The notes beneath the pieces are model-generated. The model had not been told where the DNA came from and made no database searches. It saw only the letters and a list, made by a program, of their open reading frames with translations. Position numbers and translations under genes: made by a program. DNA of 64,000 nt, taken from Clostridia bacterium (GTDB lineage Bacteria > Bacillota > Clostridia > UBA1381 > UMGS1253). Numbering within the stretch: position 1 is the stretch's first letter; every line of letters starts with the position of its first letter. Below, piece by piece: positions 1 through 53,805 of this stretch. The DNA lies in assembly GCA_045578865.1 (NCBI GenBank), contig JAZNLB010000003.1:559-64558 (forward strand), written 5' to 3'.

Positions 1-390
1 TAAAATATCAGCACATAAATCTCCTGTTACTGTAACATAATCTGCAGTCCAGGAGTAACCTGAGGCATTTATGAGGCCTGGGTTTAAGCCTAATATAACA
101 TGTGACTGAATTTCGCCCGCCTGCACATTTGTTGCATCTATGTCATGGCCATTGAGCAAATTAATGGTTTGTGCAATCATTTCCATGTGACCTAGTTCCT
201 CGGCGGCGATATCTAGAAACAAGTCTTTAATTTCGGGATCTTTAATACGAAAACTTTGTGACATGTACTGCATAGCCGCTTTGAGTTCGCCATTTCCGCC
301 ACCGAGTTGTTCCTGGAGCAAAACAGCGTATTGTGGGTTTGCTTTTTCTACTTCTACAGGATGAAAAAGCATTTTTTCGTGTTTAAACAT
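1..390 (-). CDS. Manganese (di-Mn, non-haem) catalase, N-terminal part; gene runs off the left edge
   Basis: Absent from the ORF track because it is truncated. Reverse-strand ATG at 390-388, 8 nt after GGAGG. Translation MFKHEKMLFHPVEVEKANPQYAVLLQEQLGGGNGELKAAMQYMSQSF...FLDIAAEELGHMEMI matches the conserved Mn-catalase N-terminus, including the E-x-x-H ligand motif. Confidence 0.8.
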   Translation of the reverse strand, partial: MFKHEKMLFHPVEVEKANPQYAVLLQEQLGGGNGELKAAMQYMSQSFRIKDPEIKDLFLDIAAEELGHMEMIAQTINLLNGHDIDATNVQAGEIQSHVILGLNPGLINASGYSWTADYVTVTGDLCADIL

Positions 391-566
391 TTTCTTTACC
401 TCCAATTTATATAGTTTTATTTATTTTTGGCAGTTTCAGAAAAGTTATTCATAATGTTGTATAAATGTGGTTTTTGTACAGGCAAATTTTATAAGGAAGA
501 ATCACAATGAAAAGAACTTTAGCATTAGCACTCTGCATTTAGACCATTCTGCTTTTCCATATAGCG

Positions 567-742
567 AATTATTAATATCACCAGAACAACATTAGCGCTG
601 TCAAATTATTGACAAAACTTGATAAAATGAATATAATTGTAGTATTAGAAAGTGAGTATATTACAGATAGCAGTTTAAACGATGCCCATGTCTAGATTAT
701 AATCATACATAACGAGAGAAAAAATGGGAACAGCCTTAGGAT
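567..742. repeat. Copy 1 of a ~175-bp direct repeat (divergent promoter region plus first codons of a GGDEF-type ORF)
   Basis: Aligns almost without gaps (one 1-nt indel), roughly three-quarters identical by eye, with 4861-5038. Shared blocks include attaatatcacc, attgacaa, gtattagaaa..tgagtatattaca, gtttaaac, attataatcatacat and aaaaaatg.gaacagc. Confidence 0.85.
609..637 (+). promoter_or_regulatory. Sigma-A type promoter upstream of galT
   Basis: TTGACA (609-614), 17-nt spacer, TATAAT (632-637): perfect consensus hexamers. Confidence 0.6.
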
Positions 743-851
743 ACAAGTTATGAGGATATACCACTTTTGTGGTATGCTCGTTGGACCTTTGTCGCGCAGT
801 AAAAATATTTTATAAAGCACATTTAGAAATTTGCAGAAAGAGGGGATAGAA

Positions 852-2345
852 ATGATAAATAGAAGAATTGACAAGTTAATATCATACGGATTAATGACGG
901 GGCTTATATATGAAAATGATGTAATATATGTACGCAATAAAATTCTTACAAGACTCGGTTTGGATTCATATGAAGAAACAAACGAAAGCTGTGAATCCAT
1001 TAGTGAAATAAGCGGAATATTAAAGGATATTACAGATTTTGCTGTAGAAAGAGGAATAATTGAAGATAGTATCATATACAGAGATATTTTTGATACTGAG
1101 ATTATGGATATTCTGACACCGTATCCGTCTACGGTTATAAAAACTTTCAATGAAAAGCATGAAAAAAGTCCTAAAGAAGCAACAGATTACTTTTATAGCT
1201 TGTCGTGTGATAGTAATTATATTCGCCGAGACAGAATTAAAAAAGACATAAAATGGAATGTAGAGTCTGAATATGGCGAGATTGAAATAACGATTAATTG
1301 TTCAAAACCGGAAAAAGATCCAAAAGCAATAGCTGCTGCGAAACTTCAAAAACAGTCATCTTATCCCAAATGTCAACTTTGTATTGATAATGAGGGCTAT
1401 GGTGGAAGAGTAAATCATCCTGCGAGACAGAATCATAGGATTATCCCTGTTCAAATATGCGGAGAACAATGGGGATTTCAGTACTCACCTTATGTTTATT
1501 ATAATGAGCACTGCATTCTTCTTAATGCAAAACACACACCTATGATTATTGATAAATCTGTTTTTTCAAAACTGCTTGATTTCATCAGACAGTTTCCCCA
1601 TTACATTGTTGGGTCAAATGCTGATTTGCCTATTGTTGGCGGTTCAATTTTGACACACGAACATTTTCAGGGCGGTAATCATATTTTTGCAATGCACAGA
1701 GCAGAAAGTGAAAAGTTTTATGATATAAAAGGGTTTGAAGATGTTGAAATAAGTCGATTAAAGTGGCCGATGTCGGTTATTAGATTAAAGAGTGATGATA
1801 AAGATAAGGTAATTGAATTATCCGCCAGAATTTTAAATAGTTGGAGAAGTTATTCTGACGAAAGTGCGTTTATCTTTGCCGAAACAGAGGGTGAACCACA
1901 TAATACAATTACGCCTATTGCAAGTATGAGTGATGGTAAATATGTAATGGACTTGGTATTAAGAAATAACATTACAACCGAAGAACACCCATTAGGGGTT
2001 TATCATCCGCATAAAGAACTTCATAATATCAAAAAGGAAAATATTGGCTTGATTGAAGTTATGGGACTGGCGGTTTTGCCATCAAGACTTGTTGAGGAAA
2101 TGAATGCAGTTGCAGATGCTCTTGTAAATGGTTTGGATTTAAGCAAAAACGAAAAGACAAAAGCGCACAAGGAATGGGTTGAGAAATTTAAAAATAATTA
2201 TTCTGAAATAAATAGGGATAATGTGAATGAAATATTAAGACAGGAGATTGGCAAAACTTTTGTTACCGTTCTTGAACACGCAGCTGTGTATAAACGCGAT
2301 AAATCGGGAAAGGATGCATTTGATAAGTTTATAAATCAAATATAA
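852..2345 (+). CDS. galT: Galactose-1-phosphate uridylyltransferase (type 2, Firmicute-like)
   Basis: Track ORF 831-2345. I prefer the ATG at 852, which follows AGAGGGGA. Length is ~497 aa. Has the HIT-like motif LTHEHFQGG, and lies in an operon with galM and galK. Confidence 0.9.
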   Translation: MINRRIDKLISYGLMTGLIYENDVIYVRNKILTRLGLDSYEETNESCESISEISGILKDITDFAVERGIIEDSIIYRDIFDTEIMDILTPYPSTVIKTFNEKHEKSPKEATDYFYSLSCDSNYIRRDRIKKDIKWNVESEYGEIEITINCSKPEKDPKAIAAAKLQKQSSYPKCQLCIDNEGYGGRVNHPARQNHRIIPVQICGEQWGFQYSPYVYYNEHCILLNAKHTPMIIDKSVFSKLLDFIRQFPHYIVGSNADLPIVGGSILTHEHFQGGNHIFAMHRAESEKFYDIKGFEDVEISRLKWPMSVIRLKSDDKDKVIELSARILNSWRSYSDESAFIFAETEGEPHNTITPIASMSDGKYVMDLVLRNNITTEEHPLGVYHPHKELHNIKKENIGLIEVMGLAVLPSRLVEEMNAVADALVNGLDLSKNEKTKAHKEWVEKFKNNYSEINRDNVNEILRQEIGKTFVTVLEHAAVYKRDKSGKDAFDKFINQI

Positions 2346-2355
2346 GTGAGAAGAA

Positions 2356-3381
2356 ATGTATGTAGTTAAGACGAAAATCGGCTATTATAATCATGAGGAT
2401 ATTTGTTTATATACCATCGACAATAAAAAAGGTTTGTCAGCACAGATGCTTAATTATGGTGGTATAATAACTAAGCTCATTTATAATGGAGTAGATGTGG
2501 CGCTGGGGCACAACAATTTAGAGGAATACTTCGGCAATGACGGGTATTTCGGTGCGCTCATTGGCAGAAATGCTAATCGTATTGAAAACGCAGAATTTGA
2601 ACTCAATGGCAAAGTATACAACCTTTTTGCAAACGATGGAAAGAACAATCTGCATGGTGGAAAAGAAGGCTTTGATAAAAAAATATGGGATGTCACAATC
2701 GTTGATGAAGAAGAACCTTCGCTTGTTTTGTCTACTATAAGCAAGGACGGCGAAGAAGGCTTTCCGGGGAATGTGAACATACAGGTAACATATACACTAA
2801 CAAATGATAACTGTCTGAAAATTCATTATGTGGGTGAAAGTGATGCAGATACTGTGCTTAATATGACAAATCACACATATTTTAATCTAAATGGTCATTC
2901 AAGCGGAGTTGTTGATGACCATATGCTCTGGATTGACAGTGATTTTTATACTCCAATTTCAGATAAATGTATTCCAACCGGTGAAGTGCTTAGTGTAAAA
3001 AATACGCCATTTGATTTTTCTGCTGAAGATACCCTAAAAGAAAGATTGAAGTCAGAATACGAACAAATTAAAAAGTTCGGCGGTTTTGATCATAATTTTA
3101 TTCTCAATGGTCGAGGGTATAGAAAGGTTGGTAAATGCACAGGCAATAAGACTGGTATTGTTATGGAGATATATACCGACCAAAGTGGTATGCAGGTATA
3201 TTCAGGGAATGGGATAGATGAAAATCGTGTGTGCAAGGACGGCGTAACCTACGGTAAACATTGCGGAATATGTTTTGAAACTCAAAGCTTTCCAAACAGC
3301 ATGAAGATTACGCACTTCCCAAATGCAATTTTGAGAAAAGGCGAAAAGTACGACACGGTCACAACATATAAATTTATATAA
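2356..3381 (+). CDS. galM: Aldose 1-epimerase (galactose mutarotase)
   Basis: 341 aa with typical mutarotase blocks (GRNANRI, NLHGG..GFDKKIW, NMTNHTYFNL, GFDHNF). Sits between galT and galK. Confidence 0.85.
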   Translation: MYVVKTKIGYYNHEDICLYTIDNKKGLSAQMLNYGGIITKLIYNGVDVALGHNNLEEYFGNDGYFGALIGRNANRIENAEFELNGKVYNLFANDGKNNLHGGKEGFDKKIWDVTIVDEEEPSLVLSTISKDGEEGFPGNVNIQVTYTLTNDNCLKIHYVGESDADTVLNMTNHTYFNLNGHSSGVVDDHMLWIDSDFYTPISDKCIPTGEVLSVKNTPFDFSAEDTLKERLKSEYEQIKKFGGFDHNFILNGRGYRKVGKCTGNKTGIVMEIYTDQSGMQVYSGNGIDENRVCKDGVTYGKHCGICFETQSFPNSMKITHFPNAILRKGEKYDTVTTYKFI

Positions 3382-3406
3382 ATTCTGATATAAGGATGGG
3401 ATTCAT

Positions 3407-4591
3407 ATGACAGTTCAAGATATGAAAAAAATGTTTTTAGAGGTTTATGGTGGTGATGATTTAGAACTTCGTATATTTGAATCGCCGGGCAGAGTGAATC
3501 TTATTGGTGAGCATATTGACTATTGTGGCGGTTGTGTAATGCCGGCGGCACTTACAATGAAAACTACAATTATTGCAAGAAAAAGAAATGACGATGTTAT
3601 TCGTTTGAAAGCAACTGATTTGGATTTGATGGTTGAAACAACTATACCTGAAATGGCGAAACTCAAAGGTAAAATAAAATGGGGAGATTACCAAATAGGT
3701 GTGGCTTTGGAACTCATAAATGCCGGATATGATATTTGTGGTTGTGATTTATTATACGATGACACAGTTCCACATGGCGGCGGGCTTTCGTCATCTGCCG
3801 CAATAGAGGTATCTACTGCACTCATGTTTGCCACCTTTGCAAATGAAAAGACGGGAAGCAATAAAGAAATCGACATGATAGAAATGGCGTTGCTTTCGCA
3901 AAAAGCAGAACATAATTTTATTGATGTAAAATGCGGAATTATGGATCAGTTTGCATCTGCTATGGGAAAAGCAGACCATGCAATATATTTGAACTGTGCC
4001 ACATTGGAGTATGAGCACATACCGCTAAAAATGGACGGATACAAAATTGTGCTTACAAATACCAATGTAAAGCATTCTCTTGGCAGTTCCAAGTATAATG
4101 AAAGACGAAAAGAATGTGAAGAAGGCTTATCTGTATTAAAAACTGCCATGCCGAATATTAATCAGCTTGCTGATGTTTCACCTGAAAAATTTGAATTACA
4201 TAAAGACCTAATAGCAGATTTGATCGTGCAAAAACGCATAAAGCATGTTGTATATGAGTGCGACAGAGTTAAAAAGAGCGCCCAAGCTCTAAAAAACAAT
4301 GAAATTGATAAATTCGGGGAATTCATGAATGCTTCTCATAATTCTTTGCAATATGATTATGAGGTTACATGTCCTGAATTAGATTTTGTCGTACAGGAAG
4401 GAAGACAAATCGAGGGTGTTCTTGGAATAAGAATGACCGGGGCAGGATTTGGCGGCTGTACTGTGGCTATCATAAAGGATGAGAGCATTGATAAGTACAT
4501 TGAAATTGTTGGGACAAAATATAAAGAAAAATTTGGACACGAAGCTACATTTTATGTTACAGAAATAGGAGACGGCGGTAGAGAAATATAA
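3407..4591 (+). CDS. galK: Galactokinase
   Basis: 394 aa. Galactokinase signature GRVNLIGEHIDY and GHMP kinase motif PHGGGLSSSAA. Confidence 0.95.
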   Translation: MTVQDMKKMFLEVYGGDDLELRIFESPGRVNLIGEHIDYCGGCVMPAALTMKTTIIARKRNDDVIRLKATDLDLMVETTIPEMAKLKGKIKWGDYQIGVALELINAGYDICGCDLLYDDTVPHGGGLSSSAAIEVSTALMFATFANEKTGSNKEIDMIEMALLSQKAEHNFIDVKCGIMDQFASAMGKADHAIYLNCATLEYEHIPLKMDGYKIVLTNTNVKHSLGSSKYNERRKECEEGLSVLKTAMPNINQLADVSPEKFELHKDLIADLIVQKRIKHVVYECDRVKKSAQALKNNEIDKFGEFMNASHNSLQYDYEVTCPELDFVVQEGRQIEGVLGIRMTGAGFGGCTVAIIKDESIDKYIEIVGTKYKEKFGHEATFYVTEIGDGGREI

Positions 4592-4627
4592 AACAAAAGA
4601 AACTATAAAAATCATTTGGCTCGACCT

Positions 4628-4677
4628 AAAAGAATAGCACATGATTTGTTCAAAACAATCATGTGCTATTCTTTTTC
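4628..4677. terminator. Bidirectional intrinsic terminator between convergent galK and the XRE gene
   Basis: 16-bp perfect stem: agaatagcacatgatt (4631-4646) pairs with aatcatgtgctattct (4657-4672). Flanked by an A-run and a T-run. Confidence 0.8.
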
Positions 4678-4866
4678 AAACTTAATAATGTCTTCTACTT
4701 TGCAATCAAGTGCATAACAAAGGGCATCAAGAGTTTTGGTGCTGATTGCTTCACCCTTTTTTATTCTGTGGAGAGTGTTTGCAGAAAAACCTTGTTTAAA
4801 TATCAAAAAATATTCAGTTAATCCCTTTTTAAAAAGAGTATTATAAAAAGGTTTGTAACTAATCAT
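4666..4866 (-). CDS. Small XRE/Cro-type helix-turn-helix transcriptional regulator
   Basis: Track ORF 4666-4878. The ATG at 4866 follows GGTGA. Sequence ...FSANTLHRIKKGEAISTKTLDALCYALDCKVEDIIKF is a typical short HTH_XRE protein. Confidence 0.8.
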   Translation of the reverse strand: MISYKPFYNTLFKKGLTEYFLIFKQGFSANTLHRIKKGEAISTKTLDALCYALDCKVEDIIKFEKE

Positions 4867-5038
4867 TAATATCACCAAAACAATATTATCATACTTAAAG
4901 TATTGACAATACTCAACAAAATGAGTATAATCGTTGTATTAGAAAAATGAGTATATTACATTCAACGGTTTAAACTGTACCCATACCTACATTATAATCA
5001 TACATGAAGAGGGGAAAAAATGAGAACAGCATTGGGAT
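4861..5038. repeat. Copy 2 of the ~175-bp direct repeat (functional XRE/GGDEF divergent promoter region)
   Basis: See 567-742. This copy runs from the XRE start codon to the first ~6 codons of the GGDEF gene. Confidence 0.85.
4903..4931 (+). promoter_or_regulatory. Sigma-A type promoter of the GGDEF gene
   Basis: TTGACA (4903-4908), 17 nt, TATAAT (4926-4931). Paralogous to the promoter at 609-637. Confidence 0.6.
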
Positions 5039-5616
5039 TGACAGCGGTCATAACAATATTACTAATGATTATTATATTAAAACTTTTATTAAAAATTCGA
5101 GTTCTTCGCAAAAAAAATAAATATGTTGATGAAGCAAATATGTGGCATAGACTTGCCGTTACAGATGACTTAACAGGGATTTATAATAGAAATGCGTATA
5201 ACATATATATGGAGAGGGCCAAAGTAGACGCGAAACATAAAGAAAGGGGAATTATCCTTTTCGATGTTGATAATTTTAAAATAATCAATGACACACAAGG
5301 TCATCTGGCTGGAGATGCTGTGTTGAAGAATGTGGCGAAAAATCTTACGGAGGTTTTTTTAGAGCCTCAATATAGTGTTTTTCGTATAGGTGGAGATGAA
5401 TTTGCTGTTTTGTCCAAAGGCGTTTCAGAAAAGGAAATGATTGAACGGTTGATTATTTTAAGAAAGATACTCAACGATAATGGCGATATCAGTTTATCAA
5501 TAGGATATTCAATGATTAAAGATACGCAGGAGAAAGCATTTGGGTATGCAGATGATATGCTTTATGCGGATAAACTATCTAAAAAATTGCGAAACTGTCC
5601 TTTGGAGCCCACATGA
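5020..5616 (+). CDS. Membrane-anchored diguanylate cyclase (GGDEF domain)
   Basis: 198 aa. N-terminal hydrophobic helix (LTAVITILLMIIILKLLL), then a GGDEF domain with an intact RIGGDEF active-site motif and DDLTGIYNR. I see no RxxD I-site 5 residues upstream. Confidence 0.9.
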   Translation: MRTALGLTAVITILLMIIILKLLLKIRVLRKKNKYVDEANMWHRLAVTDDLTGIYNRNAYNIYMERAKVDAKHKERGIILFDVDNFKIINDTQGHLAGDAVLKNVAKNLTEVFLEPQYSVFRIGGDEFAVLSKGVSEKEMIERLIILRKILNDNGDISLSIGYSMIKDTQEKAFGYADDMLYADKLSKKLRNCPLEPT

Positions 5617-7994: not shown

Positions 7995-8048
7995 TATTGA
8001 CTTTATACAAAGGATACAAATTGCAAACGAATGCGAGGGGGAAGAAAA

Positions 8049-11000
8049 ATGGATATTAAAAAGCAGGTTTCGAATTTTTACAGAAGTTTCAACTGTAATC
8101 CCGTCATTTTATATGTAGGGCAAAACATATCCGTTTCGGATTTGAAGGCGCATATTGTCGGCTTGCCGTGGAGTTGCGTGCTGACCAGCCGTCGGGAACC
8201 GGAATTTGCCGGTTTATTTGCCACGGAATCTCGAGAAGTAAGAGATTGCGCTAAAAAAGAAGATATTCCGGCAAAACCGATTAATAAGCAGATGCTCAAT
8301 GTGTTGCGTTTGTATGGTATCGAAGGCGAGGAAGATGAAAAAAACGAGCTGTTAGCACAGATGTTTTCGGGCAGGGATTCGGGAATTTCTGCAAAACAGA
8401 CGGTTGCGGCAGAAATGTTTCGTGTTTTAAATTCCCTGCTTGATTGTGCCAGTCAGTTGGTGGTAGTTGGTTACGACCAAACCAACGAAGGCGAGCTTTC
8501 GCTTTATGATTTTTGTTCCACATTACTTGGAGACCGCATCCCGAACGGCAGCGTGCATATCTGGGGTATAGATGCCGAGGATGAAAATAACAAGCCGATT
8601 GAGATGCTGGCTGCCGAAAAGAAATTTGAGCTGATTCCTACATCGCTTGCCGAAGCGCTTATCGAGGCAGGTAAAACGGAAGAAGATGTGATGATGCCGA
8701 GTTATATCGAGACGGGCGATGATGTTTTCTATTGCGACAAAGCGCCGATCGGTATATCTCAAGATGACCTTGTGCAGTTTCGCCATATGGCAACATTGTT
8801 GACGGAAAAAACCGTTAATGCGGTGCGCCCGTACGGCAAGTCAATGTATGAAAGATGGTTTTTTAATTTCTTAAATTCAAGTTCAACGGAAGGTCCGCAG
8901 TGGTATGGCTACCTGTCGAAGTTTTATGTAAAGAGAAGTTTTGAAGATCCGCTTGCGGTGCTGGTTCGCAAGATGCTTGACGGTACAATTCCGCTTGAAA
9001 AACGCGGTCCGGTTATTTTGGAAGGCCCGTCCGGCAGCAGTAAGAGTGTAACGCTTGCGGCGCTCGCATATCGCATATTCAACGAAGGTCTTTGTCCGGT
9101 TATCTTTATCAAAAAGGACTCGTTTTTGTTTTATAATGAAAGCGAGGAAATGAATAAACTTGAAGAGTTGATGCGTCTTATTGATGAAAAAACGCAAAAG
9201 CAGATGCGTATTTTGATTGTATGGGACTGTTCGTCTTACCGTTCAGTAGAGGTCAATGCTTTGCGCCTGACCAGACAGCTGCAAAACAAGGGATTTCGCT
9301 TTGTGTTGGTGTGCAGTGCATACGGCCGCCCGTTTGAGAGCGGACAGACCAATGAGTATTTTAGAACAGAAGAGCCGAGCAAGTTGTTTGCCTGCAAAAA
9401 AGAGGAGGCGCAGATTGTCAAGAGCCGTTCCTGCTATTATATCAATGCTTGCCGTGATATGACCAAGCGTGAAATTGTGGATTTGTGGAATCGTATTTCG
9501 GACTATTCAGGATTAAGTCCGGAGACCATCCGCTATTGGAAAAATCGTTTTGAGCAGCAAAATGAAACGAGTATTTTCCAGTACTTTTATCGACTGATTG
9601 CACTTTTGCGACCGAATCTGGAGCGCGGTCTTTCGCGCGAAGAACAAAAAATATGGCAGTATGTGGAAGCGCAGGTGCGCGAGATTTTGGATGCGCCGGA
9701 GGAGGAAAAGCCACTCACGGCAATGGAGCTTGCTTTGCAGCGTGCAGGGCTGGATATCTCAACATTGCATGCAGAGCAGGGAGAAAATGATGCAGAGACG
9801 GACAATATCGACATGGAGGCATTTTGCCTTTGCATTGCGATGTTCAGCCGTTTTAAACTGGAGGTACCATACAACATTGCTTTTCAAAGTTTGACGGGGA
9901 TGAGCAATGCAAATATGGTTTATTCTGCCACGCACAGAAAACTTTTTGAAATAATTACAAAAATTCCGCTCGTTTACTATGGAGAAAGCGAGGCGGACGG
10001 CGATTATGCTTTCCGTTTCAGAAATGCGTTTGAAGCACAATTATTCTTGGAGCGTAAAGACCCGACGGGCGAAAAGCAGTTGAAGCAAATTTTGCAGATT
10101 ATCCGTCTTTACAATGAAGAATATGAGAGAAACCGTTTTGAAGACGAGCGCTTTAAAAAGAGTTTGATTGACTTTTTGCGCCTTATTGGTCCGAACTCGG
10201 ATTATTATAAAGGCAAAGAGCATGAATATGATGTTGACCATTTGTATATCTTGGGCAATCTGGATAAGTTGGTTGCAGAAGTGGAAGCGCTTGATGTGCC
10301 AAATAAGGATGGCGGATTTACTCAGTTGTCGGTTACTTTTATGCGTGAGTTTTTCGGTAAACTTTGGGATGCCAGAAGCACGGAGCGCGGCGTAAAGAAG
10401 TGGGAAGCATGTCCGGACCACTTTAATAAAGAAACCTACGAACTGCGTATCGAACAGTTAAGTAAGGCGCGTCGCTTGGCAGATGAGTGTGTGGAAACGC
10501 TGAAAAATAAGATTGATGACTTGACAATGCATTGGGAAAACAAGCAACGAATGGCGGAAGAAAAGAATTCGTTGGCAGTGGAAACTGCGCTGATTAATGC
10601 GACCATTGAGCGATTGGAAAAAGAATATAGCGAATGTTGCAAGGAAAACGGACAGACACCGGAAGAAAAGTATTGTGTATTGCATACAGAGTATCAGGAA
10701 ACTTTCCGTCAACTTGAAAAGGTGATTTATTACAACCCGCTCAACGGTTATGCCTATAATGCGCTTTTTAGTGCTTTTGAGCAGATGTATAATAAGGAAA
10801 GTGTTTCGCAAGAAAAGAAGCTGCAACATTTAAGTGAGATTATGCCGCTTGTGGACTTGGCGACCAATCCGGATATTGTTAACCGTGGCGAGAGAGAAGA
10901 TGAACTCAGCAAGCATGTGCAAAGAATTTATGATTTCAGTAAAGGCTATGCGATTACAATTGATCGAATTTTAGCGCGTGGCGAGCAAGAAATGGCCGAT

Positions 11001-11783
11001 GAAGCGATGGAGGTATACTTTAAACTTTATGATGCGCTTATGGAGTCGAATAATCCGGCGGCAATCTTGTTTGTTTGTCAAAAGGAACTGGCAGCGGCAC
11101 AGATTTCTTCTGAAACAGTGGATGAACTCAGTACAGCACAGTTGGAGGTTTGTCAAAAGGTACGCAAATTTATGAGCAGTTCCGACAACTACGATTGTGT
11201 TTCCACAAAAGCCAATGCGATGGCGCTTTTGATACGCACCACATGGATGTGTGCAAACAAGCGTCCATTAACGGGTGGTCGTGACCGACAGTTGACATAT
11301 CTGGACGATAGGCAGTGGCGCGAAGTTCAAAGACTTTGCCGCACCTACGAGGAAACGGCAAGCCATATCGGCTATCAGCCGGTTATTATGTTGATTTATG
11401 CGTTGTCCGAAATTCAGGTCAATGCAGATTATCGGGCAGCAAGTGATATTTTACGAAAACTCAGTGAAGGCCGATTCTTTAATTTGTCCAGAATGAGAAC
11501 GCCGTATATGATTTGTAAGAAGGATGGCAGCGGGCAGTTGGAAACCTTTACCGGTCGTGTAAATTACATTCAGGACACCAGAAAAGGCAGTTTCAAGATT
11601 GCAGGAATTCCTGATCGCTTGATTGGCGGAGAGTATGGCGTGCACTTTGTATGTCAGAATCTCGGCATTAAGAGTATGCCGCCGCTGAATAAAAGATATG
11701 ATGACCTTGAACTCGGCCTGGGATATATGGGCTTGACTGCTTATACCGAACAGGGCAGGAAGGAACGAGGTGAGTCGGTATGA
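8049..11783 (+). CDS. Large (1244 aa) uncharacterised P-loop NTPase with a degenerate SIR2-like N-terminal module and a long helical C-terminal region (STAND/NLR-like architecture)
   Basis: Track ORF 8031-11783. I prefer the ATG at 8049 after GAGGGGGAAG. Walker A GPSGSSKS (nt 9024-9047). Walker B-like RILIVWDCS (nt 9207-9233). N-terminal motif order VILYVGQNIS / WSCVLTSRRE / VLRLYG / LVVVGYDQTNE parallels SIR2_2, but the catalytic positions are substituted. The remaining ~800 aa are helix-rich. The family call is from pattern memory only. Confidence 0.85.
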   Translation: MDIKKQVSNFYRSFNCNPVILYVGQNISVSDLKAHIVGLPWSCVLTSRREPEFAGLFATESREVRDCAKKEDIPAKPINKQMLNVLRLYGIEGEEDEKNELLAQMFSGRDSGISAKQTVAAEMFRVLNSLLDCASQLVVVGYDQTNEGELSLYDFCSTLLGDRIPNGSVHIWGIDAEDENNKPIEMLAAEKKFELIPTSLAEALIEAGKTEEDVMMPSYIETGDDVFYCDKAPIGISQDDLVQFRHMATLLTEKTVNAVRPYGKSMYERWFFNFLNSSSTEGPQWYGYLSKFYVKRSFEDPLAVLVRKMLDGTIPLEKRGPVILEGPSGSSKSVTLAALAYRIFNEGLCPVIFIKKDSFLFYNESEEMNKLEELMRLIDEKTQKQMRILIVWDCSSYRSVEVNALRLTRQLQNKGFRFVLVCSAYGRPFESGQTNEYFRTEEPSKLFACKKEEAQIVKSRSCYYINACRDMTKREIVDLWNRISDYSGLSPETIRYWKNRFEQQNETSIFQYFYRLIALLRPNLERGLSREEQKIWQYVEAQVREILDAPEEEKPLTAMELALQRAGLDISTLHAEQGENDAETDNIDMEAFCLCIAMFSRFKLEVPYNIAFQSLTGMSNANMVYSATHRKLFEIITKIPLVYYGESEADGDYAFRFRNAFEAQLFLERKDPTGEKQLKQILQIIRLYNEEYERNRFEDERFKKSLIDFLRLIGPNSDYYKGKEHEYDVDHLYILGNLDKLVAEVEALDVPNKDGGFTQLSVTFMREFFGKLWDARSTERGVKKWEACPDHFNKETYELRIEQLSKARRLADECVETLKNKIDDLTMHWENKQRMAEEKNSLAVETALINATIERLEKEYSECCKENGQTPEEKYCVLHTEYQETFRQLEKVIYYNPLNGYAYNALFSAFEQMYNKESVSQEKKLQHLSEIMPLVDLATNPDIVNRGEREDELSKHVQRIYDFSKGYAITIDRILARGEQEMADEAMEVYFKLYDALMESNNPAAILFVCQKELAAAQISSETVDELSTAQLEVCQKVRKFMSSSDNYDCVSTKANAMALLIRTTWMCANKRPLTGGRDRQLTYLDDRQWREVQRLCRTYEETASHIGYQPVIMLIYALSEIQVNADYRAASDILRKLSEGRFFNLSRMRTPYMICKKDGSGQLETFTGRVNYIQDTRKGSFKIAGIPDRLIGGEYGVHFVCQNLGIKSMPPLNKRYDDLELGLGYMGLTAYTEQGRKERGESV

Positions 11784-12769
11784 GAAATGGTTTGATGGGC
11801 AATCATGTAGAACTGCTCAATTCTGCAGTTCAGACGCAGATTGCCAAGCATCTGTTTCTGGTGTGCAACTATCAGCCGGTGCCGATGGCAGCGCCTCATG
11901 CAAGTACAAGGTTTTTAATTCGAATTCAGGAGCTATATAAAGTAGTCGCGGACTGTGGCGATTTGGTACGCAAGATGAAAAAAATTTTGCCGAAGCATGT
12001 ACTTGAGAAGCATAAAAATCTTGAGGCTATGCTGGAAGAAGAGCTTGAACCAAAGGTTAAACTGGTTGAACTGCTGCGTTTTGTAGTTGATCATAATAAT
12101 GCTGAGGAAAACGGGTATGAGCAACAACAGCAGTTGCAGCAATACGAGATTTGGGTTAAGAAACAGATTTCAAAACCTCAACCGGAAACGGAAGAAGATT
12201 ACGAGGTTTTAGACAGTGCATTGGAAGTGCTTTCCGATGAACTTTGTGCAGTTATTCATCGCGTTATTGTCTATATCGGAGAAATGCAGTATGCCGATAA
12301 AAGCAGTATAATTCGGAAGTGGGAATGGCAAATTCTCGACTGGTATGCGCGGCCGTTCGGCAATTTATATTATGGCTTTCTGGCAATGACATACTTTTCC
12401 AAAGCGCGCAGCAGGGATGGTAAATTTGAGTTCGTAGACGATGCACAAAGAACCGTATGTGTTGAGGAGTGGGTTTCTCGTATGCTTCGTCATGAACTGC
12501 AAACGAAAATCGATGGTACAAAAGCGGCGATTGAAGTTTGCGGACCAATACCGGTTTTGCTTGAACAACTGGAGACGGAGCAGGCAGAACTGGAAGGGTT
12601 GGAAGCTGAAATTCAAAAGGAAAAGGGCGACAGGAGATATTTTTTAAATCGCTTGCCGGAGTGGCTTCGTGAAACGATGAGAGAATGTCACTGCTCGATG
12701 TTGCCGCAGGAATTGATTGATGAGGATATTAAGCGCCGATTTGAGTCTGTGCCGACCGCTGATTTTTAG
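11780..12769 (+). CDS. Hypothetical 329-aa protein, translationally coupled partner of the large NTPase
   Basis: Its ATG overlaps the upstream stop as ATGA (11780-11783). Helical/coiled-coil-looking, with a Q-rich patch (EQQQQLQQ). No recognisable motif. Followed by a strong terminator. Confidence 0.75.
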   Translation: MRNGLMGNHVELLNSAVQTQIAKHLFLVCNYQPVPMAAPHASTRFLIRIQELYKVVADCGDLVRKMKKILPKHVLEKHKNLEAMLEEELEPKVKLVELLRFVVDHNNAEENGYEQQQQLQQYEIWVKKQISKPQPETEEDYEVLDSALEVLSDELCAVIHRVIVYIGEMQYADKSSIIRKWEWQILDWYARPFGNLYYGFLAMTYFSKARSRDGKFEFVDDAQRTVCVEEWVSRMLRHELQTKIDGTKAAIEVCGPIPVLLEQLETEQAELEGLEAEIQKEKGDRRYFLNRLPEWLRETMRECHCSMLPQELIDEDIKRRFESVPTADF

Positions 12770-17609: not shown

Positions 17610-18893
17610 TTAAGGCATGTTATAATACACGCTGTCTACATCAAAGAAGGTTTTGTTGATGAAATCCTTTTTAGTACGCATATTGTAGCGGTCGAGGTTC
17701 AAACGCTCTGAGAAGAGTACCCCCTCGTCCGTTTCATAGGTACGCATCGCCGGGCTGACCGGACAAAAGATGTTGTAGCCCATATTTTTCATGTATTGCA
17801 AGCGGTCATCGCCTTCCGGGAGAAAATAGCCGAAAGGACTGATGTAGATATCGGTGTTGTGGATCAAGTCTGCGATGCGCTCTTTAAAGCGGTTTGTATC
17901 ATAGGTTAGGTCTTCCATTTCCACACCGCCGTCGCGAAAATAGTCGTTGTGCGTGTAGCTGTGGCATGCAAGAAGCCAACCGGTATCGAGTAGTTTTTGC
18001 GTGATTTTGAGCGCCTCAGCCTTTGCCTTTTCCTGTTCTTCACCTTCAAGCTTTACGGTGCGGTAGCCAAAAACGCCCTCGTACCCCGTCACGGCAACAA
18101 TGCCTTTTGCTCCCCGCCAAGAAAAGTCGGGGTGTTCGCGCACAAATTCATCGAGAATCGGCATTACATCGCCGTCGTAAGTAACGATAACTTCGCCGCT
18201 CGGCGTGGTTACTTCGCACGCAAGATTTCCTTCGTCATTGATTACAAGTCTGTCTGCAAAGCCGTCGCCTTTCATATATTCGTAGTAGTTTACATCGTCA
18301 ATGGAAATGATGAGGGGTTTTTTCCCCGGCGGCAGTAAAATTTCACCGTCTGCCTTGACTTGGTCGAGCGGAAAGAGTATAAAGTCGCGCTCGTAGAGTT
18401 GCGGCAGCATCGCCTTAAACTCGGAAACGGTGGTCATCCACATATCGTAGCCTTCGTGTTTGTAGTCGCCGTCAAAGGCGAGTTCGGGGTAGATAATCAA
18501 ACTGTGGAAAAAGACATGATAATACTGTCCGTCATAGGGAACAAGAGCCGCCTTTGCCGTTTCGATTTCTTGTTTTAATGTAAGCACTGCCTCTTTTTGT
18601 GCATACTTGGATTCGGAAAGCAGCGTCAGCGCCTCATCGTAAAAATAACTTTTGGAGAGTGCTCTTGCCTCCTCGAGCGTTGTATCGAGTTTGGAGGCAG
18701 ACGACTGACCGCTGTTTTGCATGCAACTTTGTATACCAAGCACGAGACCCGCAATCAGGACAAGCGCGCCGAGTAACAGTATAATTAAGCGCCAGGGCAA
18801 GTGTGTTTTTCGCTTTTTGGGCGGTCTTCCCGGTTGCACTGCGCCGATGGATTCGAGCAAATCTTCTCTGGATATTTCGAGGGAATTGTTCAT
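17610..18893 (-). CDS. Membrane-anchored polysaccharide deacetylase-family protein
   Basis: 427 aa. N-terminal TM helix (WRLIILLLGALVLIAGLVLGI). NodB-like motifs IISIDDV and CHSYTHNDY. Confidence 0.6.
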   Translation of the reverse strand: MNNSLEISREDLLESIGAVQPGRPPKKRKTHLPWRLIILLLGALVLIAGLVLGIQSCMQNSGQSSASKLDTTLEEARALSKSYFYDEALTLLSESKYAQKEAVLTLKQEIETAKAALVPYDGQYYHVFFHSLIIYPELAFDGDYKHEGYDMWMTTVSEFKAMLPQLYERDFILFPLDQVKADGEILLPPGKKPLIISIDDVNYYEYMKGDGFADRLVINDEGNLACEVTTPSGEVIVTYDGDVMPILDEFVREHPDFSWRGAKGIVAVTGYEGVFGYRTVKLEGEEQEKAKAEALKITQKLLDTGWLLACHSYTHNDYFRDGGVEMEDLTYDTNRFKERIADLIHNTDIYISPFGYFLPEGDDRLQYMKNMGYNIFCPVSPAMRTYETDEGVLFSERLNLDRYNMRTKKDFINKTFFDVDSVYYNMP

Positions 18894-48900: not shown

Positions 48901-49251
48901 GCTTTATCAACTCCTGTCGCCATTATACCATAAGTAAAAATGCTTGCTTGCAAGGGCATTTTTACGCAGCCGTCAATATTACAGAATGTACGAAGTACAT
49001 TTGCGACGAAGTCGCAAAGCCTTGCCACGCAAGGCTTGTTGTATTTATTATACCATAAAACACAGATATTTCAATAATGAAATCTTATAAAACAAAAACA
49101 TCCGAATGAATGATAAACAGTTTTAGGGAAGGAAGAAAAAGAAGAAAGAGGATTCGCCTTGCTGCGGCAAGGCCCGGTCGCGGCTCTGACTGTCCACCGG
49201 ACAGTCATTTGTTACCGCTCCCCTTCGAATCCATCCTCGAAGATAAATCAA

Positions 49252-49283
49252 ATAAAATAGGACATCCAAATGGATGTCCTATT
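49252..49283. terminator. Terminator downstream of the tRNA pair (minus-strand direction)
   Basis: 14-bp perfect stem aaaataggacatcc / ggatgtcctatttt with loop aaat. Confidence 0.75.
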
Positions 49284-49288
49284 TTATT

Positions 49289-49373
49289 TGGTGGAAGAGG
49301 ATGGATTCGAACCATCGAAGCTGAAAGCAACAGATTTACAGTCTGCCCCCTTTGGCCACTCGGGAACTCTTCC
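49289..49373 (-). tRNA. tRNA-Tyr (anticodon GTA), CCA encoded
   Basis: Reverse complement is GGAAGAGTTCCCGAGTGGCCAAAGGGGGCAGACTGTAAATCTGTTGCTTTCAGCTTCGATGGTTCGAATCCATCCTCTTCCACCA. It has a 7-bp acceptor stem, anticodon loop CTGTAAA, a long variable arm and a GGTTCGAATCC T-arm. Confidence 0.9.
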
Positions 49374-49376
49374 GTA

Positions 49377-49452
49377 TGGAGCTGGTGATGGGACTCGAAC
49401 CCGCAACCTGCTGATTACAAATCAGCTGCTCTGCCAATTGAGCTACACCAGC
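49377..49452 (-). tRNA. tRNA-Thr (anticodon TGT), CCA encoded
   Basis: Reverse complement is GCTGGTGTAGCTCAATTGGCAGAGCAGCTGATTTGTAATCAGCAGGTTGCGGGTTCGAGTCCCATCACCAGCTCCA. It has anticodon stem-loop GCTGA-TTTGTAA-TCAGC and a GGGTTCGAGTCCC T-arm. Confidence 0.9.
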
Positions 49453-50681: not shown

Positions 50682-50703
50682 AATACGGTAATGTAGGGTT
50701 GCA

Positions 50704-50731
50704 AACAAAAAGGAGTAGCGGAGCTACTCCT
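50704..50731 (-). terminator. Terminator of the minus-strand 52766-50777 cassette
   Basis: Reverse strand reads aggagtagc tcc gctactcct followed by TTTTTGTTT. Confidence 0.65.
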
Positions 50732-50776
50732 CTATAGTGAAAGGACCTAAAAATGTACATCATGTTTTTTATAATT

Positions 50777-51364
50777 CTATTTTGCCATAGAACGCCCAAA
50801 CTCCTTTAAAAAACTTTTTGGTATTGTATCTTTTGGAAGAACAAAAATATCATAAATATCAAATTCAGGAAACTCGGCCAAATTTGTATCATAACTTGCT
50901 TCAAAACAATAGGACGCCTCGTCACCCTGCGCGTGTTTTTCAGCAGTTTCTTCTTTGGCCAAATACAGCGGTCCTATCCAAAGTTCATGTTCTGCATCAA
51001 ATTTATAAATATACGGTCCGGCCTCCGGCGTGTCAAAAAACAAGTCATAACTGCAAATGCCCCATGAGATTTCATTCATCTCCCTATCCCTAAAAAACCT
51101 GGACAAGGTTTGTTTGCGAACTGCTGTATGCATGGGATCACTCAAGTCGTATACATTTAAAGTACAGGATAATTTTTTTGGCGAACTCAATTGTAAGTAT
51201 CCGTATTTTCCGTCATAACACTCCGTATATTCTTCTTTTGGAAAAACTGACGATAAATAAACCCGCGGAAAATAAGTAAAAAATAAAGCTATGCTCACAG
51301 AAAGCAAAACAATAATTGCAGTCACAAAGACAATGCATTTAACCTTTTTGGTGTTGTTATTCAT
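50777..51364 (-). CDS. Hypothetical membrane-anchored protein
   Basis: 195 aa. One N-terminal TM helix (CIVFVTAIIVLLSVSIALFFTYF), and the rest has no recognisable motif. Its start overlaps the upstream ORF's end by 8 nt (ATGAATAA). Confidence 0.65.
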   Translation of the reverse strand: MNNNTKKVKCIVFVTAIIVLLSVSIALFFTYFPRVYLSSVFPKEEYTECYDGKYGYLQLSSPKKLSCTLNVYDLSDPMHTAVRKQTLSRFFRDREMNEISWGICSYDLFFDTPEAGPYIYKFDAEHELWIGPLYLAKEETAEKHAQGDEASYCFEASYDTNLAEFPEFDIYDIFVLPKDTIPKSFLKEFGRSMAK

Positions 51365-52766
51365 ATACGATACCCTCCCTGTCGGAATATGTAAATGTTG
51401 CGATTCCGGAAATTCTTAAAACATAGTCTTTGCCACTTACTCCAAGAAAGTCCGCAGCCTTACTGTAGTACCTGTCCGTTCTATACTCTTCATTTGGGTC
51501 AATGATGTCATTAAATATGTACGCAATCGTGACACTGTATTTATCGTTTTCTCTTGGCTCGATCTTCCCCTTCATCTTAAAGTTGCCTACATCCGCATTG
51601 GAACCATTAATCAATTCATACCCTGTTTTATATCCACCTTCACCATCTAACGTTACGGAGATGGTGGCTTCAAATGTTTTTTGTCCCGCGCGAATAGACT
51701 GCTTGGTTTGTTCTGAAAATTTTTGCTTTATTACGGGATTATTCTTCATATAATTATTCCATCTTTTTCCGGACACTTTGACTTCGCTGCCATCTCCGAA
51801 CAACCATGTTCGAAGGACGAATTTTCCAAAATCGTCTTTAATTTCATCGTACATAGATTTTGCAAAACTGTATGTTGGCGCATATATTATGTTATTCAAA
51901 TGCAGGTCATCTGTATACATTACACCATTTTTAATGAAAGTGCCATACTCATCGCCAACATACAGTTCTTCTGTATAACCATTGATTTTTATTGTGGCTT
52001 TTTTGTTTTCAGAGTCCCAATCTACAGAACCGCCGGCATTTTCAACATTTGCTCTGACCGCTTTTGGAGCAGGTTCAGTTACTTTCCAAGCGTTTCCTTC
52101 TCGGTTTAACTCACCGCGTGGTTGGGATTGCCCTGTCGTACTGTCCGCGTACAACGCAGCAGAATTCTTGTGTGGGAATGCAAAATCATTATACGAACGA
52201 TCATTAGCACTCGCCAACGCCTTGTTGCTTTCGGGGTACTGCGCGAGATGATACGCTTTTTCCGGTTCGATTTTGGATGAGCTTTTGTACATGTTTGCCG
52301 AAAAGGTATTGCCAGCGCTTTTTGAGGTAGGTGATATTTCACGGATGGATGTACTCTGCCTTAAAATACTTTCAAACGGCGAGCCTTGGAAGGCATTATA
52401 CATATCGCTCTGTCTTTGGCTTGCATCGGATAGCATTTTGTAATATGCTCGGTCGCCTTCTTCGTCTCCGTATATACCTTGTAAAAATCCATGGTCGAGT
52501 TTGGTAACATTGGGATTTAATGTGTTGTTCGCTGTGCTTTTCAGCAAAGCTCGGATTTGTTTTTGTTCTTGCGCTGCACCATACAACTGTTGATTTTGCG
52601 CTCGTTGCTGCGCCGTTGGAAATCCGTTGCTTTTAAGAAAGTCTTGCGTTTTTATTTTGTTTGCATCGTTGTAGAGATAACTAAGCGCAGAATCTGCAAT
52701 GTCGTCCTCATCGAAAATACTTCCTTTTTTCTCATTATACGCTTTTCTCGCATTTTTGTCCAGCAT
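51357..52766 (-). CDS. Hypothetical 469-aa protein: Q/N/S-rich N-terminal half, central copper-amine-oxidase-N-terminal-like (stalk) motif, unknown C-terminal domain
   Basis: Long ORF in a locally AT-richer segment. aa ~236-290 (VRANVENAGGSVDWDSENKKATIKINGYTEELYVG...) resembles the Cu_amine_oxidN1 repeat; this is a weak call from memory. No signal peptide seen. The ATG has no RBS of its own but overlaps the stop of an RBS-preceded mini-ORF. Confidence 0.65.
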   Translation of the reverse strand: MLDKNARKAYNEKKGSIFDEDDIADSALSYLYNDANKIKTQDFLKSNGFPTAQQRAQNQQLYGAAQEQKQIRALLKSTANNTLNPNVTKLDHGFLQGIYGDEEGDRAYYKMLSDASQRQSDMYNAFQGSPFESILRQSTSIREISPTSKSAGNTFSANMYKSSSKIEPEKAYHLAQYPESNKALASANDRSYNDFAFPHKNSAALYADSTTGQSQPRGELNREGNAWKVTEPAPKAVRANVENAGGSVDWDSENKKATIKINGYTEELYVGDEYGTFIKNGVMYTDDLHLNNIIYAPTYSFAKSMYDEIKDDFGKFVLRTWLFGDGSEVKVSGKRWNNYMKNNPVIKQKFSEQTKQSIRAGQKTFEATISVTLDGEGGYKTGYELINGSNADVGNFKMKGKIEPRENDKYSVTIAYIFNDIIDPNEEYRTDRYYSKAADFLGVSGKDYVLRISGIATFTYSDREGIVYE

Positions 52767-52943
52767 TAGCCGCGTTTTTGCGGATTCGGTAAATAATTTT
52801 TCTGATACATAATTGTACCTCCCGTTAATATAAATTTTCGCTTTTGCGAATGTTTATATTATACCAAGGAAAAAAGGGCTACGACTATCAACTTTTCGTA
52901 AGCGACACATAGGTCGCTTGTTGCGACAAGTGAATTGCCCTGT

Positions 52944-52972
52944 GGCATGTGATTTGAAACCTGCGGTTTCAT
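52944..52972. repeat. Hairpin repeat, copy 1 (ggcatgtgatttgaaacctgcggtttcat)
   Basis: Near-identical to 53123-53149. Contains hairpin tgaaacc-tgc-ggtttca (52955-52971). Confidence 0.8.
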
Positions 52973-53122
52973 ACAAACGCAACCATTTTATTCCGCCGGA
53001 CGGAAGGGGATATGTACTTTTGTGACCAAAAGCACCAAAAGTCCCGGGGGTTCCGATTCCCCCGGGCCCCTAAAACGGCTTGGGAGGGATTGCATCCCCC
53101 CAAGACCCCCTTGCTGCCTTGC

Positions 53123-53149
53123 GGCATGATTTGAAACCTGCGGTTTCAT
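53123..53149. repeat. Hairpin repeat, copy 2 (ggcatgatttgaaacctgcggtttcat)
   Basis: Near-identical to 52944-52972. Hairpin at 53132-53148. Confidence 0.8.
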
Positions 53150-53475
53150 GATTTGCGCCGGTGGCGCATGAATTGTTTGTATATGCAAATGTAAATGTAA
53201 ATGCATTGAGAATGCAATTCGTTTTTATGAAGGGCAATGATTTATCATTGCCAATAATTTCGCTTGTGCCGATTTTTGAAATTGTCCTTAGCGCAGTTGC
53301 AATTTGGGAAGGTGCAAGGAGAACAAGAGGGTTCTTCCGCAAGACAACATAATGCAAAGTCGCAATTATCACAGCGGCATTCGTTTTTGGCAAATTGCCG
53401 TTGAACGGATAAGGAAAACTTTGTTTCCCGGTATATAGCCTGGTTTATTATGTTTCATGAAAAATCACCATATTA

Positions 53476-53497
53476 TCAAATAATAATTATTATTTGA
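53476..53497. promoter_or_regulatory. Perfect 22-bp AT-rich palindrome upstream of an XRE gene (candidate operator)
   Basis: tcaaataataa|ttattatttga is a perfect inverted repeat, ~75 nt upstream of the XRE start. Confidence 0.45.
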
Positions 53498-53571
53498 ATA
53501 GTAATAAATATTGCAATTATATCATATAATTTATTTTGCGTCAATGCGTTAAAATATATATGGTGATGCAT

Positions 53572-53805
53572 ATGAAGGCAGAATACAGAGAACGCTATAT
53601 CAAAATAGGGTTGAAAGTGTCTTATTATCGAAAACTGAAATCTATGACACAAGAGCAGTTGGCGGAAAAGATGAATTGCGATATTTCCTTTATCGGGCAA
53701 ATTGAAGCACCGAATATTTATAAGGCAATATCTATGGATACATTATTTCGCATTGCGGATGCATTGGAAATTGATGCGTACAAACTTTTGAAAGCGGAAG
53801 ATTAA
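53572..53805 (+). CDS. XRE-family helix-turn-helix transcriptional regulator
   Basis: Track ORF 53536-53805. ATG at 53572 after GGTGA. ...LKSMTQEQLAEKMNCDISFIGQIE.. is a classic HTH_3 core. Confidence 0.8.
   Translation: MKAEYRERYIKIGLKVSYYRKLKSMTQEQLAEKMNCDISFIGQIEAPNIYKAISMDTLFRIADALEIDAYKLLKAED

Follow-up and report, generated by a model that had tools for sequence, protein, structure and literature searches.

A two-gene cassette lies on the minus strand of a 64,000-nt stretch of DNA from an uncultured member of the Clostridia (GenBank assembly GCA_045578865.1, contig JAZNLB010000003.1, positions 559 to 64,558), referred to here as the window and used for all coordinates below unless another locus is named. 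The first gene (51357-52766 (-)) encodes a protein of 469 amino acids, W469, and the second (50777-51364 (-)) a protein of 195 amino acids, W195; they are considered here as a putative toxin and its predicted immunity protein. The junction between them reads GTATATGAATAAC, in which the shared ATGAATAA constitutes an 8-nt overlap. The operon is closed by a terminator-like hairpin and T-run (50700-50733 (-)), with the stem-loop itself at 50709-50733 consisting of an 11-bp stem, a 3-nt loop and the tail TTTTTGTTT. A preliminary description of this DNA, made from the sequence alone, had pointed to the two overlapping minus-strand open reading frames (ORFs), their 8-nt overlap, a terminator of their own and an AT-rich composition, and each of these observations agrees with the present analysis. 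The GC content of the cassette is 39.8% compared to a window mean of 45.2% (standard deviation 3.8), placing it in the lowest 9% of windows of the same size, and its GC content at third codon positions (GC3) is 35-40% compared to 47-55% in the neighbouring genes. The AT-richest part of the window is nevertheless bases 1-5000 (~33-34% GC; GC3 26-33%), which exceeds the cassette in this respect and holds a galactose-1-phosphate uridylyltransferase gene (831-2345).

Single-sequence searches of both proteins against Pfam, NCBIfam, PHROGs, PADLOC and the PDB returned one weak match to Cu_amine_oxidN1 and nothing else. A template-free AlphaFold2 (AF2) model of W469, calculated from a 37-sequence alignment, may be considered in terms of an all-helical N-terminal domain, a disordered linker, a small α/β subdomain, and a C-terminal domain, the last two of which make up a tip of ~240 aa. 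The C-terminal domain (aa 296-469, nt 51360..51881 (-), followed by the stop codon at 51357-51359) is predicted to be compact with a predicted local distance difference test (pLDDT) score of 85-98. From 111 sequences, the residues conserved in the tip family are D311, W321-L-x-G-x-G, W336, Y339, N343, G382-Y383, G388, N390, N419-D420-I-I-D423-P-N425, Y428, D431 and D447-Y448, and W469 retains every one that is invariant in the family.

The C-terminal domain is predicted to have the fold of the colicin M (ColM) catalytic domain by two independent routes. In the first, a profile of the catalytic part built from 30 sequences was searched against the PDB sequences, and the top nine matches all belonged to the colicin M family, including pectocin M1 (E = 0.005), syringacin M, pectocin M2 and colicin M. 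The alignment spans ColM residues 133-261, which is the whole catalytic domain, and pairs (W/F)NDIIDPNxxYxxD with the catalytic YNDLYDANPSTHRD and lrHWLxGxG with FRHYLFGNG. In the second, a Foldseek search with the template-free model placed colicin M, syringacin M and pectocin M2 as the top eight matches with probabilities of 0.94-1.0; the next match was the C-terminal domain of a Bacteroides fragilis type VI secretion system (T6SS) effector (9jdi). The preliminary description had found no motif it recognized in the C-terminal ~160 amino acids and had proposed structure prediction with Foldseek for this region; the domain is now better described as a distant colicin-M-like toxin domain.

While a word-indexed homolog search produced only two relatives of the toxin, a full HMMER scan of 1.84 billion representatives exposed the tip family, with 464 matches to the toxin profile at E ≤ 1e-3, mostly through the tip. 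The tip domain ends no more than 93 residues from the protein C-terminus in 126 of 127 tip matches. Among the proteins that carry it are RHS-repeat proteins as long as 2,210 aa and proteins with eCIS_core/DUF4157, WXG100, PAAR-like DUF4280 or DUF637 domains. Rhs proteins end in the whole tip, α/β subdomain included, and other delivery scaffolds from many phyla end in the ColM-like module by itself. The tip is not represented by any Pfam model.

The adjoining subdomain (aa 233-295, nt 51882..52070 (-)) resembles the N-terminal domain of copper amine oxidases (CuAO). W469 residues 237-277 align with positions 24-64 of the 108-position Cu_amine_oxidN1 model (PF07833) at E = 0.0014. Their 19 bits fall short of the gathering score of 24.2, which the homolog P0016 (homologous proteins are given P numbers and homologous loci L numbers) approaches with 23.8 bits (E = 4.4e-5). 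In the AF2 model, residues 235-294 form a helix and five short strands (pLDDT 71-80), and Foldseek lists E. coli amine oxidase only at ranks 32-49 with a probability of ~0.1. The 'stalk' repeat that had been proposed for this segment is thus supported weakly, by sub-threshold Pfam matches in W469 and P0016, and by none above the gathering score. In the orphan Rhs tips P0015, P0016 and P0018, a DPxGL motif is followed directly by the CuAO-like and ColM-like units; therefore, the CuAO-like unit is part of the mobile tip. CuAO-N domains are common in clostridial envelope proteins, and with the weak Pfam match one might propose that W469 and W195 are a stalk-like wall protein and its membrane anchor, forming a structural complex at the cell surface with no antagonism. 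Such a complex is very improbable: W469 lacks a signal peptide, its CuAO-like segment is short (~60 aa) and is coupled to a domain that also forms the tips of Rhs, WXG100 and PAAR-like toxins, and the head swapping and orphan partners described below are hallmarks of conflict systems.

At the other end of W469, residues 1-135 (nt 52362..52766 (-)) make up an all-helical N-domain, with AF2 helices spanning aa 4-127 at a pLDDT of ~70-84. The N-domain family shares the motifs FDxDxxAxSALxYLY, KTQxFLKxNGFP, DRxFLxGxxGDEEGxRxY and AFxGSxFE, and its extreme N-terminus is also conserved (...FPLDKxxKKxYN...). A disordered and poorly conserved linker rich in Ser, Asn and Gln follows (aa 136-232, nt 52071..52361 (-); AF2 residues 128-233, pLDDT 24-39). 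It is at this linker that homologs with other heads diverge, and the alignments A1 and A2 lose conservation there. The Q/N/S-rich, low-complexity N-terminal half of the preliminary description is therefore correct for aa ~136-232 but not for the conserved helical domain that precedes it; its statement that the protein has no signal peptide also stands. The N-domain itself has no match in Pfam, NCBIfam, PHROGs or PADLOC, and its profile (A7) had zero matches among PDB sequences. None of the LXG, WXG100, PAAR, Rhs or MuF domains was matched by the N-domain, and LXG likewise had no match in W469, P0001, P0002 or ten further N-domain proteins. In those ten, Pfam gave sub-threshold matches in the heads only (Peptidase_C97/LRAT, DUF1402/Tse3 and Ntox44).

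The N-domain is joined to a variety of C-terminal heads. P0002 is 82% identical to W469 over the N-terminal third and unrelated beyond it; its C-terminus bears an NCYAYAL motif, which suggests that its head is a cysteine peptidase. A scan of GTDB species genomes with N-domain patterns found ten loci, all in metagenome-assembled genomes (MAGs) of uncultured Clostridia from animal guts. Nine matched through the N-domain and the tenth, L017, only through a tip fragment. Six of the ten come from a single MAG, in which at least four loci encode full toxins with different heads. Among related Clostridia MAGs, one N-domain carries at least eight head types. The window-type head is found in W469, P0001, L008 and P0020, SLT/lysozyme-like heads in P0014, P0021 and L011, several cysteine-peptidase-like heads in P0002, P0023, P0025, L013 and L014, glycine-zipper membrane heads in P0028 and P0035, an 'SDKYDF' head in L010, P0024, P0041 and P0049, and heads of other types in L012/P0154 and L015. 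The genes located 3' of the N-domain toxins mostly encode transmembrane (TM)-anchored proteins or lipoproteins, while that of L015 encodes a soluble protein. The 'SDKYDFTEF' head (L010 505-1791, L001 3060-3491, L009 10749-11234) resembles the DKYDF motif of canonical colicin M and is followed by its own TM-anchored partner. It is a candidate for a second, more canonical ColM-like domain; hhalign against the W469-type tip profile gave a probability of only 35% (E = 4e-4), and no PDB sequence was matched.

The exchange of heads can be followed at the rpsU-yqeY locus. On two metagenome contigs, the flanks of this locus are 99% identical and the N-domain DNA is 82% identical while the heads and the downstream genes are unrelated, and in a comparison of L001 with L019, DNA similarity stops near toxin residue 187. 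The contigs represent direct evidence, at the level of sequence, that head and immunity genes are replaced by recombination. Toxin loci also erode: L017 (9696-10356) holds a decayed cassette in which an N-domain fragment, 34 residues left over from the CuAO-like unit (53% identity with W469 aa 245-278) and a short piece resembling SleB/CwlJ precede a lipoprotein gene. A GC-rich dispersed repeat of ~260 nt, with copies that are 88-94% identical, flanks the toxin cassettes of the Clostridia MAG JAZRUW and its close relatives (L012 9561-9960; L003 1742-2000; L008 1994-2154; L013 1866-2044; L015 7193-7421; L016 8975-9180; L017 9655-9747). The repeat yields spurious ORFs ('...SRPHFYDKIK.QNSHGVLQENL...') and may be an element resembling a miniature inverted-repeat transposable element or a recombination substrate for cassette exchange.

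Since related genomes join the N-domain to many different heads, its most likely role is that of an export or delivery module. No genes for a type VII secretion system (T7SS), WXG100 proteins or Lap proteins were found near the cassette in the 64-kb window or at the other N-domain loci that were read, and the genes that surround the cassette here and the toxin genes of L009, L011, L012 and L019 have housekeeping functions. It may be speculated, tentatively and with the odds against it, that the N-domain defines a new route for the export or delivery of mostly envelope-targeting toxins in spore-forming gut Clostridia, one that is independent of Sec, T7SS/LXG, Rhs and phage MuF.

The N-terminus of the partner protein W195 is rich in Lys and leads into a single TM helix (aa ~10-32, nt 51269-51337) and an α/β ectodomain of ~155 aa. 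The Kyte-Doolittle score reaches its maximum of 2.94 at residue 11, and the AF2 model (pLDDT 75) begins with a helix from residue 3 to 40 followed by β and α elements, in accord with the single N-terminal anchor and ectodomain described earlier. From the positive-inside rule, W195 is predicted to be oriented N-in/C-out. A Foldseek search of the model against the PDB found no fold match, Cmi and TipC included, with a best probability of 0.21.

Homologs of W195 are rare, with only 11 in 5.8 billion clusters. Where the upstream gene could be read, each homolog lies either behind a W469-type tip or 3' of another toxin/immunity pair. The preliminary description had called for a survey of the distribution of the pair; W469-type tips and W195 homologs co-occur with the same 8-nt overlap in three independent lineages (the window, L001, and L003/L004/L005/L008). 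Where the downstream gene of an N-domain toxin with another head was read, it was never a W195 homolog. Further homologs are orphans behind other toxin/immunity pairs (L007 8359-8946, L015 1543-2130, and L002) and one is located at a contig edge (L006). Orphan head/immunity cassettes are present more generally in the related loci (L001 3060-3956, L007, L015, L006 and L009), while the window contains the main pair alone. Behind other members of the tip family lies a gene for a lipoprotein (L024) or for a polytopic membrane protein (L025); in the case of P0016, a close relative with 43% identity to the W469 tip, it is an unrelated polytopic membrane protein. From this distribution, W195 probably behaves as a cognate immunity protein that tracks the tip and not the N-domain. 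Of the effector/immunity and surface-complex pairs offered in the preliminary description, the first is supported by the co-occurrence, the orphans and the tracking of the tip, and the second is not supported.

The tight 8-nt coupling is also typical of chaperone/adaptor pairs, no secretion system was found, which makes a dedicated partner attractive, and the fold of W195 has no assignment. W195 could thus be imagined as a membrane-anchored partner in export, docking or maturation. This is improbable since N-domain toxins with a different head had no W195 homolog directly behind them where the downstream gene was read, W195 homologs stand by themselves behind unrelated pairs of toxin and immunity genes, and the closely similar tip of P0016 is followed by an unrelated polytopic membrane protein instead. 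A common immunity family uniting W195 with the L024 lipoprotein, the ORF in a gap of L023 and the L025 polytopic protein was considered and rejected (hhalign probability <1%). The L024 (4774-5238) and L023 (~4900-5300) sequences loosely share 'W....D...LW..SSDIGL' and a C-terminal 'IP(K/N)(S/C)(F/L/I)' with W195, where the counterparts are 'W....SYDLFF....G.Y.Y' and 'DTIPKSFLK', but the resemblance is not significant.

Taken as a whole, the cassette is read as a chromosomal polymorphic-toxin (bacteriocin-like)/immunity module of uncultured spore-forming gut Clostridia, with a colicin-M-like tip directed at a lipid II-type target and a membrane-anchored protein that neutralizes it. A probability of roughly 70% is assigned to this reading. 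The modular architecture, the swapping of tips, the co-variation of the partner with the tip, the ColM-like fold and the membrane anchor of the partner are features of the sequences and models themselves. For the substrate of the tip, the direction of the immunity function and the export route, we infer the following scheme. The N-domain would mediate export or delivery of the toxin. Once outside of the producer, the tip would reach the outer face of the cytoplasmic membrane of a Gram-positive competitor, with no outer membrane to cross, and the CuAO-like unit may aid in surface binding. There, the tip would cleave lipid II or a related carrier-lipid precursor at the undecaprenyl-pyrophosphate linkage and block wall synthesis, as colicin M does. 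An extracytoplasmic site of action is supported by the TM helix and ectodomain of W195 and by the lipoprotein and polytopic partners at L024 and L025. W195, translationally coupled to the toxin and anchored N-in/C-out in the membrane of the producer, would bind the toxin through its ectodomain and neutralize it at the producer's own membrane.

Several points weigh against the reading of the cassette as a lipid II-directed toxin and its immunity protein. Toxicity, cleavage and neutralization are all predicted from sequence and models. Neither a secretion signal nor secretion genes were found in the 64-kb window or at the loci that were read, and the fold predicted for W195 matches no known immunity protein. 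The sequence-based E-values against the PDB are marginal (0.005-0.17) and those of Foldseek are ~3e-3. Pfam Colicin_M (PF14859) has no match in W469 at E ≤ 1 and none in 65 members of the tip family at E ≤ 0.01 and E ≤ 0.001. The tip family keeps only the two Asp and the Asn of the ColM signature D-x-Y-D-x-N-x3-H-R, in which the Asp, Tyr, Asp, His and Arg residues are reported to be essential to colicin M; the Tyr is replaced by Ile and the His-Arg pair by variable Ser, Thr or Arg. In addition, W469 and its Clostridia/Rhs sub-branch lack two His residues, at positions 320 and 387, that are common in the wider family.

Since the signature Tyr, His and Arg are not kept, the chemistry or the substrate of the tip may differ from that of ColM. 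A protein with a ColM-like fold could act on another carrier-lipid precursor, such as an intermediate of wall teichoic acid or capsule synthesis, or serve as a non-enzymatic binder. The low sequence identity of 13-16% to the ColM structures would be in keeping with such a departure, as would the invariant residues N343, Y383, N390, Y428, D431 and D447-Y448, which have no described counterpart in ColM. A different activity is nonetheless unlikely, if by no means negligible: of the 110 sequences that cover the columns of D420, D423 and N425, 102-110 keep these residues, the alignment covers the entire catalytic domain, and the immunity candidates all face the extracytoplasmic side, as a lipid II-type target predicts.

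The state of the toxin gene itself is the final point against the preferred reading. A GGGAGG ribosome-binding site (52818..52823 (-)) can be read 7 nt 5' of the ancestral start codon, the ATG at 52810-52812. A TGnTATAAT sequence resembling an extended -10 box (~52858-52866 (-)) can be read further upstream; it counts as weak evidence since a two-hexamer promoter scan did not list it. The ancestral 5' end of the gene (52767..52812 (-)) is now a 14-codon leader ORF that encodes MYQKNYLPNPQKRG, and its TAA stop codon overlaps the ATG of W469 (TAATG). If one A is inserted after codon 6, the translation becomes MYQKNYYTESAKTRLMLDKNARK, which is identical to the N-terminus of the homolog P0002. The toxin gene is therefore a 484-codon ORF that has lost a single nucleotide in codon 7, and the 469-aa ORF is its remainder beginning at an internal Met. 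The preliminary description had not noticed this frameshift. The exact 469-aa protein is missing from a collection of 15 billion proteins while the adjacent 195-aa protein is present there from NCBI (P0003), a difference that fits annotation of the toxin gene as a pseudogene. The frameshift and the absence of the protein from the collection suggest that the toxin may be a pseudogene in this genome. With this deletion so close to the start of its gene, the toxin may be silent here or made in a form shortened at the N-terminus, with the immunity gene intact.

It is possible, then, that the identity of the pair is as proposed but that the toxin is a decaying pseudogene, with the immunity gene kept as protection against relatives that make the toxin. 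The deletion parts the ATG that is equipped with a ribosome-binding site from the rest of the ORF, and related loci (L007, L009 and L017) commonly hold orphan immunity genes and degraded toxin fragments, to which the missing database entry may be added. Decay is less likely than not, though far from improbable: the other 469 codons are all open, every residue conserved in the family is kept, and the homolog P0001 likewise starts 3' of the missing segment. The deletion could be an error in the MAG assembly, and the overlap of the leader stop with the next ATG would permit re-initiation.

W469 and W195 can be compared with several known systems. Colicin M, syringacin M/PaeM and pectocins M1 and M2 have the same C-terminal fold and Asp-x-x-Asp-x-Asn core as predicted for W469, a similar arrangement of N-terminal, middle and catalytic domains with no signal peptide, and an adjacent immunity gene (Cmi and others) whose product is membrane-associated and faces the extracytoplasmic side. 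Ghequire et al. 2018 (PMC5821083) reported that the membrane-associated immunity proteins recruited by ColM toxins are diverse in structure, and the varied membrane partners of the tip family match this pattern. The fold predicted for W195, however, is not that of Cmi or any other PDB entry, and the translocation and receptor domains of the ColM family are unrelated to the N-terminal and middle domains of W469. The absence of the signature Tyr, His and Arg and the failure of the Pfam ColM model to detect W469 also set it apart. In addition, a review of the ColM bacteriocins lists only Gram-negative genera (PMC5821083), whereas the host of W469 is a Gram-positive member of the Clostridia.

TelC of Streptococcus intermedius, an LXG toxin of the T7SS, is also a Gram-positive interbacterial toxin that combines a polymorphic N-domain with a C-terminal head. 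It is a lipid II phosphatase that is neutralized by a bitopic immunity protein with an ectodomain, TipC (PMC5555719, PMC6193138), and W469 is predicted to hit lipid II outside the membrane. The TelC fold differs from that of ColM (PMC5821083). Unlike TelC, W469 has no LXG domain and no T7SS, WXG100 or Lap genes nearby, and W195 has no fold match to TipC. Rhs/YD-repeat toxins have tips after the DPxGL motif that are homologous to the W469 tip, with up to 43-50% identity, and their loci contain arrays of orphan tips with small downstream genes as do the relatives of the cassette. W469, in contrast, has no RHS/YD repeats, YD shell or DPxGL motif, and its tip is borne by a short helical domain and a disordered linker. 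The T6SS effector T6EC1 has a ColM-like fold that was noticed by Foldseek only (bioRxiv 10.1101/2023.03.26.534264), and Burroughs and Aravind described a 'novel toxin domain unified with the Colicin M fold' in polymorphic toxins (PMC12419801). Compared by description, these are also ColM-like folds visible only by structure or sensitive profiles that serve as polymorphic heads with periplasm-facing immunity, but their carriers and partners (T6SS cores; cystatin-like lipoproteins and BamE-like immunity proteins) differ from the Clostridia N-domain and W195. No paper was found in the literature that ties ColM-like heads to Clostridia or describes the N-domain of the cassette.

The cassette is surrounded by ordinary chromosomal genes. 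On one flank are nrdD, an isochorismatase gene, an acyltransferase gene, tRNA-Tyr and tRNA-Thr (49289-49452 (-), identified by Rfam) and azlCD, with both azlC and azlD assigned by Pfam; on the other are an XRE-type helix-turn-helix (HTH) gene, RNase M5 (Toprim/DUF4093), a histidine kinase/response regulator pair and dihydroorotase. SpoIVB is encoded elsewhere in the window, from which the host is taken to be a spore-former. Rfam identified nothing beyond the two tRNAs. No integrase is encoded among the window genes, and no relatives of the cassette were found in IMG/VR viral contigs, INPHARED phages, PLSDB plasmids or BFVD structures. An origin from a mobile element was rejected on these grounds. 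The proximity of the tRNA genes and azlCD, the lack of an integrase, and the clusters of hairpin repeats around the cassette had all been remarked upon beforehand. The first two are borne out, and of the clusters those upstream are real and consist of a 23-nt direct repeat and a GC-rich hairpin. These lie in the intergenic region 52811-53535, where perfect copies of the repeat at 52950-52972 and 53127-53149, each internally palindromic (TGAAACCTGCGGTTTCA), bracket the hairpin at 53043-53066. The region has no match to an Rfam family, and its segment 53015-53100 is 78% identical to a segment just 5' of the toxin gene in L011 (9720-9809).

The XRE-family HTH gene (89 aa, 53536-53805 (+)) is divergent from the toxin operon and has a GC content of 35.6%. 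Since it is also AT-rich, the low-GC island may reach ~53805 and take in this gene. Its product is a possible local regulator of the toxin operon; the gene is not kept beside the toxin in other loci. Immediately adjacent to the 3' end of tRNA-Tyr, two perfectly matched 20-nt arms (CAAATAAAATAGGACATCCA / TGGATGTCCTATTTTATTTG) separated by 2 nt form an inverted repeat (49249-49290). Further away, a 1,250-aa ORF (8031-11783 (+)) with no Pfam match at E ≤ 1e-5 is overlapped at its 3' end by 4 nt by a 329-aa ORF (11780-12769 (+)), and a 427-aa ORF (17610-18893 (-)) is also without a Pfam match.

Toxin/immunity pairs are a known kind of system. Polymorphic toxin systems are well established, with new heads and carriers reported regularly, and the toxin gene is possibly damaged in the source genome. 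What is new is the combination of a distant ColM-like head in a Gram-positive host, an uncharacterized carrier domain, and a partner whose predicted fold has no match. Lipid II is a validated antibiotic target, and its destruction is the means by which colicin-M-type enzymes kill. The cassette points to a distant branch of the ColM fold in gut Clostridia. This branch is a widespread toxin tip outside of Pfam that is mounted on Rhs, WXG100, PAAR-like and DUF4157 carriers across phyla. The cassette also exposes an N-terminal carrier domain that is specific to its family and has no known relatives. The presence of six matching loci in a single MAG, with full toxins that bear different heads in at least four, suggests active inter-strain warfare in ruminant and animal gut communities. 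Should the N-domain prove to define an export or delivery route of its own, these proteins would be the first colicin-M-type 'protein antibiotics' of Gram-positive bacteria and would come with a new immunity fold.

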